From Escherichia coli (GTDB lineage Bacteria > Pseudomonadota > Gammaproteobacteria > Enterobacterales > Enterobacteriaceae), in the NCBI RefSeq assembly GCF_003334315.1, contig NZ_QOWR01000007.1: a stretch of DNA of 64,000 nucleotides; one strand, given 5' to 3'. The notes below the pieces were generated by a model, which was given only the letters and a program-made list of their open reading frames with translations, was not told the DNA's origin and did not search any database. The position numbers were made by a program, and so were the translations under genes. Position 1 is the stretch's first letter; each line of letters opens with the position of its first letter. Shown piece by piece: positions 13,571 to 22,402 of the stretch.

Positions 13571-15108
13571 GCATCCTCCATCGGCGTAAACAGGCTACTT
13601 TCCATCAGGCGTGGATGCTTGATAATTGGACGGAAGGCCATATACGGCAGAATGTCGCGCTCAATCTCCACACTCGGTGCGATTTCAATTAATTCAACGC
13701 CTTCTGCCGTTAACTGGAATACTGCGCGTTCAGTGATATACAACACTTCCTGACCACTTTGCTGTGCGTAGGCGGCGCTAAAAGTGATTTTTTCCACCTG
13801 GGTAACCAGTTTAGGGATTTGACCTGACTGGGCGATATGCAAGCCATCTGGCGTTACATCAATCTTGCTACCTTTGGCGTCGAACGTGCCGCAGAACACC
13901 ACTTTACGGGCGTTTTGCGCAATTTCGAGAAAACCGCCGGGGCCAATGAGATTGCCATTGAGATGGGAGACGTTGACGTTACCGTACTGATCCATCTCTC
14001 CCATGCCGAGGAAGGTGATATCGATCCCTCCGCCACTGTAGAACTCAAATTGATCGAGTGATGGAATAATGGCATCGGCGTTGCGGGCACAACCAAACAG
14101 AGCATCATCAAGCATCATGCCGTTATGTACGCCTTGCTCGACGCTCAGCCATAAACTTTGGTAAGGAACGCCTTCGCGCAGCGCTACGCCTGGAATACCG
14201 CCAGGAATACCAAAGCCAAAGTTGGTTGAAGCGCCAGCCACCAGTTCGCGTGCTGCCCGACGGGCAATCAGGCGGCGCACCGGATGACTAACCAGTTCAA
14301 TAGCGTCGTTAGAACTCAGACGGCGATGTTGACCGCTAATGGTCAGGTCGTAACCGCCAAGATAGGTTTGCGGTTGTTCGCGGTGTTCAACGATGCCATC
14401 AACCAGAATGCCCGGTAATTTGACCCGGCGTGGTTCAATCGCGCCAGCTTCCAGCACATCGCGTACCTGTACGAACACTTTGCCGCCGCTGTTGTGTGCT
14501 GCCAGCGCCATGGAATAGCTATCCATATCAATCGCTTCTTCTTCAAGGCTGACGTTGCCTCGAGGATCGGCATAAGTGCCACGCAAAATCGCGTAATCCA
14601 CTTTGAAAGGGCGATAACGAAGTTTGGTTTCACCGTCGATTTCAATCAGTTCTACCAGGTCGTCGGTAGTGCATTCATTCGACTTACCGCCGCCATTGCG
14701 TGGATCAACAAACGATCCCAGCCCAACGTGGGTAAAAAGCCCCGGACGTCCGGCGCCGATCTCCCGTAGCAGTGCCTGAATCACGCCACCAGGAAAGCAG
14801 TAGGCTTCAATCGTGTTATTTTTTACCAGCGCCTGCATTTTGGGCGACCAGGTAAAGTGCCCGGCAATAATGCGTTTGAGCATCTCTGCGTGCGCAAAAC
14901 GATTAGTGCCTTTGCAGTCGCGATCGCCAATACCCAGCGAGTGGATTAGCGTCAGGTCGCGAGGGTGTCCGGTTTGCAGGAAACGCGCTTCAATAGCAGC
15001 CAGAATATGGTCGGCTTCTACCATACCGCCGCCGTTACCGCTAATAGCAATAGTCGCACCGTCCTGAATTTGCGCCGCCAGTGCCTCGGCGGTTGTTATC
15101 TTACGCAT
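13567..15108 (-). CDS. Family I acyl-CoA:acetate/3-ketoacid CoA-transferase (YdiF/propionate CoA-transferase-like, fused alpha-beta)
   Basis: 513-aa ORF MRKITTAEALAAQIQDGATIAISGNGGGM...; fused two-domain architecture and glycine-rich oxyanion regions typical of COG4670-type CoA-transferases. Confidence 0.8.
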   Translation of the reverse strand: MRKITTAEALAAQIQDGATIAISGNGGGMVEADHILAAIEARFLQTGHPRDLTLIHSLGIGDRDCKGTNRFAHAEMLKRIIAGHFTWSPKMQALVKNNTIEAYCFPGGVIQALLREIGAGRPGLFTHVGLGSFVDPRNGGGKSNECTTDDLVELIEIDGETKLRYRPFKVDYAILRGTYADPRGNVSLEEEAIDMDSYSMALAAHNSGGKVFVQVRDVLEAGAIEPRRVKLPGILVDGIVEHREQPQTYLGGYDLTISGQHRRLSSNDAIELVSHPVRRLIARRAARELVAGASTNFGFGIPGGIPGVALREGVPYQSLWLSVEQGVHNGMMLDDALFGCARNADAIIPSLDQFEFYSGGGIDITFLGMGEMDQYGNVNVSHLNGNLIGPGGFLEIAQNARKVVFCGTFDAKGSKIDVTPDGLHIAQSGQIPKLVTQVEKITFSAAYAQQSGQEVLYITERAVFQLTAEGVELIEIAPSVEIERDILPYMAFRPIIKHPRLMESSLFTPMEDA

Positions 15109-15117
15109 ACAATTTCC

Positions 15118-15900
15118 TTATTGATTATGGAAGCTCACGCTACTTTTTTCGGCAAAGGCGCGCGTCGCCTGCTGGCAATCCTGAGTGGCAGACATTAATC
15201 CGGCCAGTAGCTGGTGCGGGTAATCGGCATGTTTATTTTCCAGTGCCAGAATCAGTTGCTTAATATGCGCCAGTGCCACCGGACCGCATTTTTCCAGCTG
15301 CGCTAACTGGTTCGCCATCCAGCTTTCCACCTGTTCTTTTTCTACCACTTCATCAATTAAATTCGCCGCCTGGGCTTCCTGCGCCGTCAGGCGTTTACCC
15401 AGCATCAGCATCTGGCGACCGACCACCGGACCAACCTGATTAAGCACACGTTCAATGCCCATCCAGCCAGGCACCATGCCGAGCATCACTTCCGGGTTAG
15501 AGAATTTCGCGCCGGGGCGGGCAATACGAATATCGCAGCACAAGGCCAGTTCAATACCACCGCCGATGGTATGACCGTTGAGATTCGCAACGGTTAATTG
15601 GGGTAAGTTTCGCAGGCGATTAAAAACGTCATTACCGCGTTTAATCCATTTTCTGCCCATATCTAATGGCGAATAGGCCGACCACGATTTAATATCGCCA
15701 CCCGCACAAAAGAATTTATCGCCGGTTGCCGTTAATTCGACTAATCGTAATGTGGTGTCGTTTTCAATTTCATTTAAATAATGGTCGAGAGATTCGATCA
15801 TTTCTTCATTAATAGCATGACATTTATCTTCACGGTTCAATGTCAGGCGGCAAGAAGCCGCCGCTCTGCTGAACAGAACGGGTTGGTCACTCATGATCAT
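15118..15900 (-). CDS. Enoyl-CoA hydratase/isomerase (crotonase fold)
   Basis: 260-aa ORF with crotonase signatures (FFCAGGDI, GHTIGGGIELALCCD); true start may be the ATG 6 nt downstream (15894) judging by RBS spacing. Confidence 0.8.
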   Translation of the reverse strand: MIMSDQPVLFSRAAASCRLTLNREDKCHAINEEMIESLDHYLNEIENDTTLRLVELTATGDKFFCAGGDIKSWSAYSPLDMGRKWIKRGNDVFNRLRNLPQLTVANLNGHTIGGGIELALCCDIRIARPGAKFSNPEVMLGMVPGWMGIERVLNQVGPVVGRQMLMLGKRLTAQEAQAANLIDEVVEKEQVESWMANQLAQLEKCGPVALAHIKQLILALENKHADYPHQLLAGLMSATQDCQQATRAFAEKSSVSFHNQ

Positions 15901-15903
15901 TCC

Positions 15904-16746
15904 TTAACAATAATGCGCGATGCGATCGACGCTAATATCCAGCGTGCTGTTAATATCTTTCTGCCACCAGTAAGGCGAGAATATTTCCAGTTCTATAGCG
16001 CCATTAAATCCGGCGTTTTCAACCAGCCGACGAATTGACGGAATATTGATGACGCCATCTCCCGGCATTCCCCGGTCATTGACCAGATCGGTGGTCGGTA
16101 CTAACCAGTCGGAAACATGAAACGCGAGGATGCGTTTTCCGGCACGCAGGATCTGACTGGCGAGCTCCGGATCCCACCAGACGTGATAAACATCCACCGC
16201 CACGCCGAGGCCAAACTCACCATCGGGATCGAGTTCATCACACCAGTCCAGCGCCTGACGTAACGTGCACAGGCAAGAGCGGTCGGCAGCAGTCATCGGG
16301 TGCAGCGGCTCCAGCGCAATTGGCACGCCGACATCTTTCGAATGTGGCAGCAACTGGCGAATCCCTTGTTTTACTTGTTCCCGCGCTTCGTACAAATCTT
16401 TTGTTCCCTGCGGTAACCCGCCAACCACCTGCATATAACAGGCGGCGTTAAGCACCGCTGCGTCGTCCAGCGCCCGGCGGTTATCATCAATCGCCAGTTT
16501 GCGTTCCGCCTGTGTCGGCGCGGTGTAGTAAGTGCTACGGCACAAACCGGAAACGCTCATGTTACTGGCAGCAAGCTGGCGGGCGATTTGCTGGAGATCT
16601 TCACCCTGCAACTCCCTGCGCCAGGGGGCAATTGCGCCAATACCACGCGCGGCGCAGGCATCAATAATGGCGGGTAGAGGCGTTTTATAGCCCAGTGTTG
16701 CGGTATTGATACTGAATAAATCCGGGCGTTGTAACAGATCTCTCAT
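15904..16746 (-). CDS. Sugar-phosphate isomerase/epimerase-like TIM-barrel enzyme (xylose isomerase-like fold)
   Basis: 280-aa ORF; family assignment from overall similarity to the AP-endonuclease-2/xylose-isomerase TIM-barrel family (IolE, UlaE, dehydroshikimate dehydratase); function within that family is open. Confidence 0.7.
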   Translation of the reverse strand: MRDLLQRPDLFSINTATLGYKTPLPAIIDACAARGIGAIAPWRRELQGEDLQQIARQLAASNMSVSGLCRSTYYTAPTQAERKLAIDDNRRALDDAAVLNAACYMQVVGGLPQGTKDLYEAREQVKQGIRQLLPHSKDVGVPIALEPLHPMTAADRSCLCTLRQALDWCDELDPDGEFGLGVAVDVYHVWWDPELASQILRAGKRILAFHVSDWLVPTTDLVNDRGMPGDGVINIPSIRRLVENAGFNGAIELEIFSPYWWQKDINSTLDISVDRIAHYC

Positions 16747-16755
16747 GATTCAGCC

Positions 16756-17547
16756 TCAGAAGCGCGGCATACTTAAGCCGCCGTCGATGGCGACCGCCTG
16801 ACCACAGGTGTAAATCAGTTTACCTTCCGCCATCGCGCGGACGGTGGAAGCAATATCAGCCGGATAACCCCAACGTCCCCACGGCACCAGACCTTTGGCA
16901 ATCAGTTCGTCGTAATAAGCCGTTGCCGGAATAGTCATATCGGTTTTGATGAGACCAGGGCGCACTTCATAAACGCCAATTTGTTCATTACAAAGGCGAG
17001 CAGCAAACAGACGAGCAGCGGCAGAAACGGCGGTTTTGGCAATGGTGTATTCGCCGCGATTCATCGCCAGCATGATGGCGTTGATGGAACTGACGAAAAT
17101 AATCGAGCGGTGCGGCAGTTCCGCTTCCGGTTTCGGCTGTGCCAGTAAGCGCTTACTGAATGCCTGAGCAAGGAAGAACGGCGCGCGGGTGTTAATGGCA
17201 ATGTTTTGATCGAAGCTGTCTGGTTCGAGGTCGAGGAGGTCACCGCGTTTTTTCACTGAAATCCCCGCGTTATTGAGCAGGCAGTCCAGACGCCCCCACT
17301 GGTTTTGTGCCGCGTCGAGCATCTCTTCATGCAAGGAGAGATCGCCGACATCGGCAGGGAAGCAAATGACTTCCACACCTTCTGCCAGACATTCCTGTTG
17401 TGTGGCATGTAATTTTTCTACGCTGTCAGCATCGGGGCGATCGTTAATCAGCAGGTTAAATCCGCCACGAGCAAGCTCCAGCGCACAGCCCTTTCCAATA
17501 CCACGAGCGGCTCCGGTAATCACGGCAACAGGACGAGTGGATTTCAT
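16756..17547 (-). CDS. Short-chain dehydrogenase/reductase (SDR)
   Basis: 263-aa ORF; TGAARGIGKG cofactor motif near N-terminus and catalytic YTIAK (YxxxK); first gene of the island operon. Confidence 0.85.
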   Translation of the reverse strand: MKSTRPVAVITGAARGIGKGCALELARGGFNLLINDRPDADSVEKLHATQQECLAEGVEVICFPADVGDLSLHEEMLDAAQNQWGRLDCLLNNAGISVKKRGDLLDLEPDSFDQNIAINTRAPFFLAQAFSKRLLAQPKPEAELPHRSIIFVSSINAIMLAMNRGEYTIAKTAVSAAARLFAARLCNEQIGVYEVRPGLIKTDMTIPATAYYDELIAKGLVPWGRWGYPADIASTVRAMAEGKLIYTCGQAVAIDGGLSMPRF

Positions 17548-17734
17548 ACAATAACTCTCTTTTTTGAATATTGTTTTCTAAGTGACAATTAGCTTGCGAC
17601 GTGCCGCAAGAAAGATCAACCATCTGGTTGGTTGATATGCGATAGTGATCACAGGACATTTGATAACTTGATGAAAGTACAAGTTTTTATCCTTTTTACT
17701 GGAGCTTCTAATTAATCGGGTTAAGATAGTTATC
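17548..17734. promoter_or_regulatory. Divergent promoter/operator region between the island operon and its TetR regulator
   Basis: 187-bp AT-rich intergenic region between divergent genes; contains inverted repeats (see operator feature). Confidence 0.45.
17615..17636. promoter_or_regulatory. Candidate TetR-type operator (8-6-8 inverted repeat)
   Basis: ATCAACCA-tctggt-TGGTTGAT, perfect 8-bp arms read directly from sequence, 99 bp upstream of the TetR start; a second IR cttgcg-acgtgc-cgcaag lies at 17593-17610. Confidence 0.4.
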
Positions 17735-18406
17735 TTGAAGAGGTCGTGGGGAAGCGTTATGTATCTTGATACCAGCAACGTACAGAGCCTGAAGGAAAAG
17801 CTGCTGTTATGCGCGGTTAATGAATTTGCCGAATATGGTTATGAAGGGGCCAGGGTCGATAATATTGTTAAGGCTGCGGGGTGTAGTAAACAGACGGTTT
17901 ATCATCACTTTGGTAATAAAGAAAATTTATTTATTGAAGTACTGGAATATACCTGGAACGATATTCGACAAAAAGAAAAGGCCCTTGATTTCTCAGATCT
18001 TCCGCCACAAAAAGCTATTGAGAAAATTATTGATTTTACATGGGATTATTATATTGCTAACCCCTGGTTTTTAAAAATTGTGCATAGTGAAAATCAAAGT
18101 AAAGGTGTGCATTATGCAAAATCACAGCGTCTCTTAGAAATTAACCATGCGCACTTGCAGTTAATGGAATCCTTATTGGATGAAGGGAAGAAACACAATA
18201 TTTTTAAGCCAGATATCGACCCATTGCAGGTGAATATTAATATTGCTGCGCTTGGGGGATATTATTTGATCAACCAGCATACGCTTGGCCTGGTTTATCA
18301 TATCAGTATGGTTTCCCCCCAGGCACTGGAAGCCAGACGTAAGGTCATCAAAGAGACGCTCCTTAGCTGGCTTTTGGTTGATCCTTCATCTACTGCGCAC
18401 GAATAA
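17735..18406 (+). CDS. TetR/AcrR-family transcriptional regulator
   Basis: 223-aa ORF; N-terminal HTH ([28 protein letters not shown]); AT-rich by eye; alternative start at 17759; 3' end overlaps the ytfB stop by 17 bp. Confidence 0.8.
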
Positions 18407-19028
18407 AACTGCCATCCGGCTGGCGGGTAAACAGGACCTGTTGATTATTCCCCGTATCAATAGTTAAGCCCGTCACCACGCCGCTGGCGTTCTGGCGGAT
18501 TTTCACCATCTGCCCGTTTTGCAAATTACTCAGCGGCTTACCCGCGCCTTCTACCTGCGCCATTGCATAGACATCGGTAGCGGGCAGTCCGTGGTCGCGG
18601 AACAGCTGCGCCATCGTTTTACCGGGTTCGACACGGTAAGAGCGCCATTGATTATCAATTCCGCTATCTGGCTGGAATGGTTGTGTTTGGGTAGTTTGCG
18701 GCTGTTCTTCTGGCTGGCCTTCCTGTATAGGTTCTGGAGCGACCGGAGCCACCTGATCAGGATCATTTTGTGGTGTGACTAATTGCGCCCGCAGCTGTTC
18801 TTCTGTCGGCGGTTGTGATTGCGACTGAATATCTAACTGCGCTTCACGCGTCACCACCGGCGCGTTGGGCGTATCATCAGATGGAAGCAGAAATCCGACC
18901 ACCAATATAATGGCGGCAATAATGATCCCCCGACGATGCATCGGCGGCAGCGGGTCCATGAAGCGAAAATTGTCCGGCGCGTGCCAGACTTTCTCCAGGG
19001 TTGGTTTTAGTTCAAAGCGCCCGGGCAT
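18390..19028 (-). CDS. ytfB: Cell-division protein YtfB (OapA/LysM-like)
   Basis: Track ORF 18390-19064 trimmed to [29 protein letters not shown] start (212 aa); single TM segment and Pro/Gln-rich linker. Confidence 0.85.
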
Positions 19029-21588: not shown

Positions 21589-21600
21589 CCGCATTATCAT

Positions 21601-21629
21601 GCTGGATGGCGCAATGCCATCCAGCTTTT
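21601..21629 (+). terminator. Rho-independent terminator of cycA
   Basis: Stem gctggatgg / ccatccagc (21601-21625) followed by TTTT (21626-21629). Confidence 0.65.
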
Positions 21630-21632
21630 AGA

Positions 21633-22295
21633 TTACTCACCCGCCAGCGCGCGTGGGAACAGTACATTGTTTTCCAGACTGATGTGATCCATCAGGTCAT
21701 CAATCAGTTCATTAATGCCGTTATACATCGCTTTCCAGGTGGTGCAGGCTTCTGGCGGCGGTGTGACGTTATTGGTAGTGTGTTTGATCACTTCCAGCAG
21801 TTCGCCCGCTTCATCGTGCTCGCTTTCCATTACGCTGATTGGCCCCATTGCCTGGCTGCCCATGCCTTGTTTGATCATCGGGAAGAGGATCTGCTCTTCT
21901 TTCATCATGTGGCTGGAAAGCTCTTCATGCAGCATGGTCAGGTATTTTGTCAGCCCTTTTGGCACGCTCGGTTTGTCGGCGTGAACGCGCTCGACTTTAG
22001 TCGCTTGCAGGATCAGCTCCGGCAGTTGCTCGCGGTGACGATCGTGGTAGCGCACGATGATATGGTCGATGATTTCTGCCAGCGGGGCGCTACGCCAGTC
22101 TTTCTCAATCGGTTGTTCAGCAAGCTTTGCCAGCTCAGCTTCAATGACCTCAACATCCAGTTCTTTACGTGCCGCCGCACGCGCCAGCGTTTGCTTACCG
22201 CCGCAGCAGTAATCCATATCATATTTACGAAACAGAGCCGAAGCGCGAGGGATAGAGAGCGCCAGTTCACCTAAAGGTTGGTCGCGATAAGCCAT
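21633..22295 (-). CDS. ytfE: Iron-sulfur cluster repair di-iron protein
   Basis: 220-aa [40 protein letters not shown] (ScdA N-domain plus hemerythrin-like domain). Confidence 0.95.
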
Positions 22296-22321
22296 AGCTG
22301 ATACCTCATTCTTAATAAGAT

Positions 22322-22344
22322 AAGATGTATTTTAAATGCATCTT
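22322..22344. promoter_or_regulatory. NsrR operator at the ytfE promoter
   Basis: Near-perfect 11-1-11 inverted repeat AAGATGTATTT-T-AAATGCATCTT upstream of ytfE; ytfE is a known NsrR target and the palindrome fits the recalled consensus. Confidence 0.55.
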
Positions 22345-22402
22345 TAAGGCAAATGCTATAACCCTTACGTAGCAGAGGCTTATTTAACTCACTGCCAGTA
22401 TG

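Follow-up and report, generated by a model that had tools for sequence, protein, structure and literature searches.

The window analysed here, a stretch of 64,000 nt of Escherichia coli DNA, follows a gene order that the annotation of E. coli ATCC 11775 gives as the ula operon, rpsF-rplI, a strain-specific island, ytfB, fklB, cycA, ytfE and ytfF, and then pyrBI and tabA. The 107-nt intergenic region between ytfE and ytfF contains an inverted repeat (Table 1). Read directly, its + strand is AAGATGTATTTTAAATGCATCTT, i.e. AAGATGTATTT-T-AAATGCATCTT, and on the minus strand, the strand of ytfE, it is AAGATGCATTTAAAATACATCTT. An inverted-repeat search returned two arms of 11 nt separated by a 1-nt spacer, complementary at 10 of 11 positions (91%), the sole non-complementary pair being T22328 and G22338. 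Between 22200 and 22500 the repeat search found no other inverted repeat. The element lies 26-48 nt upstream of the ytfE ATG, leaving a gap of 26 nt to the initiator codon at 22295, and 58 nt downstream of the stop codon of ytfF on the same strand. A sequence-only reading of the window had described a near-perfect 11-1-11 repeat immediately upstream of ytfE, and its coordinates proved to be exact.

This palindrome is almost certainly the NsrR operator at the ytfE promoter, an element that is already well known and that was previously predicted as an NsrR site by comparative genomics. The nsrR gene itself lies outside the window; in ATCC 11775, which is 100% identical to the window over 21600-22450, it is annotated beside rnr, about 12 kb past the start of the window.

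Table 1 Features of the ytfE-ytfF region, in window coordinates
Feature	Position	Strand	Basis and remarks
NsrR operator, 23-bp 11-1-11 inverted repeat	22322..22344	.	Arms 22322-22332 and 22334-22344, central base 22333
ytfE CDS, regulated gene	21633..22295	-	Open reading frame; 220-aa di-iron protein, RIC family; annotated ytfE in 5416 E. coli genomes; K-12 b4209
ytfF, next open reading frame upstream of ytfE, same strand	22403..23377	-	Open reading frame and annotation under the genome match
Shine-Dalgarno GAGG, 8 nt before the ytfE ATG	22304..22307	-	Sequence; GAGGTA fully conserved across species
Central -10-like hexamer of the operator, TAAAAT (site positions 11-16), putative ytfE -10	22329..22334	-	Species conservation
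Alternative -10-like hexamer TATCTT at the operator 3' edge (site positions 23-28)	22317..22322	-	Conserved beyond the 23-mer
Common T/C polymorphism, arm position 7 (consensus Y)	22328	.	T here and in K-12; C in CFT073 (locus L002 position 835)
Second conserved block, candidate NarL/NarP 7-2-7-type site	22356..22374	-	Conservation profile; promoter membership uncertain

Match to the NsrR motif

It is the match to the NsrR motif that singles out the operator; symmetry alone does not. Bare 11-1-11 repeats with at least 10 of 11 matching positions occur four times in the window, against 0.65 expected from first-order Markov surrogates, and the other three, at 6354, 10050 and 28932, are G+C-rich. 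The degenerate NsrR consensus AAGATGYATTTNAAATRCATCTT, by comparison, has one match in the 64 kb even when three mismatches are allowed, and none in 100 shuffles. When the operator was aligned with the NsrR consensus made of the half-site AAGATGYATTT and its inverse, 1 bp apart, all 22 of the 22 specified positions matched, a result that none of 500 shuffles equalled.

For a quantitative comparison we used a symmetric NsrR weight matrix derived from 25 distinct published CFT073 11-1-11 sites, from which the ytfE site was left out (PMC5320621 Table 4). The sequence-only reading had called the repeat an NsrR-type site and had named a comparison with an NsrR matrix as the check. With the ytfE-free matrix that identification held: the operator scores 30.4 bits with the window background and 29.8 bits with a uniform background, where the maximum is about 31, and the exact matrix P is 8.5e-13 per position. 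The training sites score 12-26 bits on their own matrix, so that the operator stands above every one of them. The runner-up among the 64,000 positions reaches 14.0 bits, 16 bits under the operator, and shuffled windows yield best scores with a mean of 13.4. Judged by these figures, the ytfE operator is the natural site closest to the NsrR consensus.

A candidate second NsrR site at 61121-61143 (ATAAGTCAAAATATATGCATTTT, beside pyrL at the pyrBI promoter) was rejected, since its 14.0 bits correspond to the shuffle level and the match is most likely due to chance.

The ytfE operator of K-12 MG1655 (b4209) is the same object. Comparison with K-12, which had also been suggested from the sequence, showed an identical 23-mer at the same 26-nt distance from the ATG, flanked likewise by cycA, ytfE and ytfF. 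The two strains differ by three single bases in the intergenic region (22354, 22393 and 22394), none of them in the operator. The ytfE operator of CFT073, which has been verified by ChIP-seq, occupies the same position at the same gene and is identical in 22 of 23 bases, with C in place of T at 22328. Other E. coli NsrR sites (hmp, hcp, ygbA, yeaR, tehA and others) share the 11-1-11 layout and the AAGATGYATTT half-site, and the centre of the yeaR site is also TTTAAAAT; they are, however, more degenerate, at 12-26 bits on their own matrix versus 30 for ytfE.

Conservation of the operator and candidate promoter elements

The region is nearly universal in E. coli. An 851-bp stretch around the operator has a match in 5417 of the 5426 complete E. 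coli genomes, several of which, including ATCC 11775, are 100% identical, and a 116-bp intergenic query is present in 5416 of the 5426. Within the operator one base is commonly polymorphic, namely 22328, which corresponds to the Y of the published NsrR consensus gATGyAT (PMC1274295). C at this position produces a perfect palindrome, while T leaves one mismatch. Counting 32-mers centred on the variable base, we found the T allele in 3557 and the C allele in 888 of the 5426 complete genomes (C about 16%). The alleles differ by 0.8 bit on the matrix with uniform background (29.8 for T versus 30.6 for C). Sampling of the remaining genomes revealed a G-to-T change at 22319, in the flank and outside the operator, and a T-to-C change at 22341 in one strain.

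One genome departs from this arrangement. E. coli 09A19CPO004B (NZ_CM151352.1, locus L010) is without ytfE, and a truncated nikR / rhsB junction abuts the downstream side of the operator, at the equivalent of about 22310. The gene that NsrR would regulate is thus missing, while its site and ytfF are retained; a genuine rearrangement or a fault of assembly could explain this.

Beyond E. coli, a YtfE scan of species-representative genomes yielded 80 loci, giving 81 sequences with the window. Escherichia, Enterobacter, Citrobacter, Kluyvera, Klebsiella, Raoultella, Kosakonia, Lelliottia and Buttiauxella are among the genera represented. All 80 of these other Enterobacteriaceae loci carry an NsrR site of 24.4-30.6 bits whose end is separated from the ATG by 24-27 nt. 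When the 110 nt upstream were aligned with MAFFT, information averaged 1.80 of a possible 2 bits across the operator, compared with 0.75 in the flank on its upstream side and 1.42 from the operator to the ATG. Conservation across the 81 sequences extends to the outer bases of the arms, AAGATG/CATCTT; changes between species fall at site positions 4, 7, 13, 14, 17, 20 and 21, and all of them stay within the NsrR consensus.

The same alignment points to a promoter element embedded in the operator. The hexamer at site positions 11-16 is TAAAAT in 55, TAATAT in 24 and TATAAT in 2 of the 81 sequences. The central spacer base of the palindrome is the second base of this hexamer and is A in 81/81 ytfE sequences versus A/C/G/T = 10/6/5/4 in the 25 other NsrR sites. 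Such an invariant central A is what would be expected for the -11 adenine of a -10 element, an argument of moderate weight, the sequences being related. A second -10-like hexamer occurs at site positions 23-28, where TATATT is found in 67/81 sequences and TATCTT in E. coli; this hexamer could be the real -10 element or the start-site region.

Searching for the promoter by other means gave no further candidates. A simple sigma-70 scan of 22200-22500 returned no promoter, and no good -35 hexamer is visible there. Neither a ytfE entry nor matching coordinates for its transcription start were found in the supplements of Kim 2012 and Ettwiller 2016, and a literature text search on the ytfE promoter found one EHEC reporter paper and nothing else. 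With either hexamer the operator would lie inside the core promoter, and it is from these two candidate hexamers that we infer its overlap with the -10 element and the start site.

Regulation by NsrR and alternative explanations

The sequence, the matrix match, the identity with K-12 and the conservation described above come from our own analysis, while occupancy, derepression and the mode in which NsrR binds DNA are taken from the literature. [quoted passage not shown] Both alleles of the polymorphic base are represented in these experiments, since CFT073 carries C (the perfect palindrome) and the K-12 ChIP-chip strain carries T, as in the window. Expression of ytfE rose 69.6-fold in CFT073 with nitrate as the source of NO (PMC5320621) and 544-fold in an nsrR mutant of Salmonella (PMC2884951), and a PytfE fusion showed no activity until it was induced by an NO donor (PMC7336997). 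The nitric-oxide-responsive repression that the sequence-only reading had claimed is therefore borne out by published ChIP, by induction with NO sources, by derepression in an nsrR mutant and by the PytfE reporter. Its description of ytfE as an iron-sulfur repair gene agrees with the standard annotation, but that function is contested: a study from 2022 makes the case that YtfE is a nitrite reductase producing NO (PMC9052748).

We propose that regulation would proceed as follows. NsrR is an Rrf2-family homodimeric repressor carrying an iron-sulfur cluster. In the absence of NO, the cluster-loaded protein would sit on the 23 bp with one winged-helix domain on each 11-bp arm. The operator probably lies in the core promoter, given the conserved -10-like hexamer at its centre and the second one abutting it, and ytfE would be off because the bound dimer blocks RNA polymerase there; we infer that repression works by occluding the -10 and start-site region. 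NO would then nitrosylate the cluster, NsrR would lose its affinity for DNA and ytfE transcription would become high.

The binding mode in this scheme can be compared with the crystal structure of Streptomyces coelicolor [4Fe-4S]-NsrR on the hmpA1 operator (PMC9338935), which shares the 23-bp operator length. In that complex each subunit of the dimer places one helix-wing-helix unit on a half-site, and the wings reach into the minor groove at either end of the operator; once NO has driven the loss of the cluster, binding is abolished, and comparison with the apo form shows regions that would collide with DNA (PMC9338935). The two systems are not alike in sequence, however. The hmpA1 operator differs from that of ytfE, binding of ScNsrR to the E. 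coli hmp operator is very weak, and several DNA-contacting residues of E. coli NsrR are not the same as in ScNsrR (PMC9338935).

That the main ligand of the palindrome is a regulator other than NsrR, such as the Rrf2 paralogue IscR, Fur, FNR or CRP, appears very improbable. Such a role would suit YtfE as a di-iron protein with links to Fe-S metabolism and anaerobiosis, IscR is of the same protein family as NsrR, and derepression of ytfE has been reported in fnr and fur mutants (PMC9268430). The latter effects were nevertheless proposed to be indirect in a review that found no recognised Fur or FNR sites in the ytfE promoter (PMC9268430). Our own best intergenic matches were 10/19 for the Fur box, 6/10 for FNR, 6/10 for CRP and 14/25 for IscR type 1, the last under the shuffle mean of 15.4, and 91%-99% of shuffles equal them. 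IscR type 1 and type 2 sites, although likewise palindromic and A+T-rich, have a different motif, and ChIP places NsrR itself at the ytfE promoter (PMC5320621).

Two further explanations dispense with a DNA-binding repressor, and we regard both as less probable still. The repeat could act at the level of RNA, as a hairpin that terminates transcription of ytfF or as a structured ytfE 5' leader. Its position past the ytfF stop codon would allow this, and the window's three other 11-1-11 palindromes probably form terminator or leader hairpins. The ytfE repeat, however, has A+T-rich arms and a "loop" of 1 nt with no T-run after it, and a terminator scan of 22200-22500 was empty. Folding of the intergenic RNA gave -22.1 kcal/mol (z = -0.73), with 40 of 200 shuffles at least as stable, no Rfam family matched up to E=1, and the differences between species, which do respect the NsrR consensus, are not paired changes of a kind that would keep a stem. 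It is just as hard to credit that the repeat is A+T-rich core-promoter DNA, accidentally symmetric and conserved for RNA polymerase rather than for a repressor. The central base, left unspecified by NsrR, is invariant, and two -10-like hexamers lie in or next to the repeat; part of the conservation may therefore come from promoter function. A promoter would constrain about 6 + 6 hexamer bases, though, and not 22 symmetric positions, whereas the outer bases of the arms are kept throughout the alignment and an independent NsrR matrix gives the P value reported above. Repression is, in addition, genetically dependent on nsrR (PMC2884951), and NsrR is found on the promoter in vivo (PMC5320621).

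Read as the NsrR operator, the intact element shows that, as far as ytfE is concerned, the NO-stress circuit of this strain matches K-12, and it confirms a known element, one that the first-stage reader could recognise from raw sequence. The ytfE promoter is a standard NO-reporter promoter. The allele frequencies at 22328 and the cross-species evidence for a -10 hexamer embedded in the operator are mildly useful by-products.

An upstream conserved block and other features of the window

The conservation profile revealed a second block, 12-30 nt upstream of the operator. In E. coli it reads GTAAGGGTTATAG (...TGCTACGTAAGGGTTATAG) and in most other genera CCCCGAAAGGGGTAT, with a strong CCCCGAAAGGGGTA version in, for example, Citrobacter and Kluyvera. 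NarP sites upstream of dnrN/ytfE in enterobacteria were predicted by Rodionov et al. 2005 (PMC1274295). In 65/81 sequences the block matches the 7-2-7 pattern TACYYMT-NN-AKRRGTA at 11-13 of 14 positions, at a fixed distance of 21-22 nt from the operator, and random sequence reaches at least 12/14 on this pattern in 0.4% of trials. The Escherichia version (22359-22374) matches at 10/14, no better than shuffles. These alignments suggest a NarL/NarP-type candidate site that is well kept in most Enterobacteriaceae and degenerate in Escherichia. At the NarL-activated genes yeaR and ogt, 7-2-7 sites lie near -43.5/-44.5, and by analogy this spacing would fit a -10 element at site positions 11-16.

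It is conceivable, though on balance we doubt it, that the T/C variant shifts NsrR affinity and the NO threshold of ytfE between lineages and that, separately, the promoter pairs an operator-embedded -10 with a NarL/NarP-type activator site near -44. Both ideas leave the identity of the element as an NsrR operator unchanged.

The upstream block also gave the best match to an IscR type 2 site, which we rejected: the match of 17/24 (P ~0.06) lies on the block and not on the palindrome, and the median across species is 15/24 versus a random mean of 13.7. Farther upstream, about 60-85 nt from the NsrR site, a CRP-like TGTGA-N6-TCAC motif is present in many non-Escherichia genera (Enterobacter, Citrobacter, Kluyvera and Lelliottia; loci L014-L090). 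Escherichia is without this motif upstream of ytfE because the 3' end of ytfF occupies the position.

Elsewhere in the window, a strain-specific island of about 10 kb lies between rplI and ytfB (about 8220-18410). It encodes an HTH protein together with a HipA-family toxin, an MFS transporter, a FAD-binding protein, a CoA-transferase, an enoyl-CoA hydratase, a sugar-phosphate isomerase, a 3-ketoacyl-ACP reductase and a TetR regulator. Next to ytfB, the K-12 sequence that was compared has only the ytfA pseudogene.

Two of the other 11-1-11 palindromes, at 10050-10072 and 28932-28954, are perfect and G+C-rich and are situated between convergent genes, the former between those for the HipA-family toxin and the MFS transporter and the latter between ytfK and paeA. 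Both are probably bidirectional terminators. The remaining one, a G+C-rich 10/11 palindrome at 6354-6376 (AGCGCTCCCCGCCGGGGAGTGCT), stops 5 nt short of the rpsF start codon and may be part of the leader of the rpsF (S6) operon.
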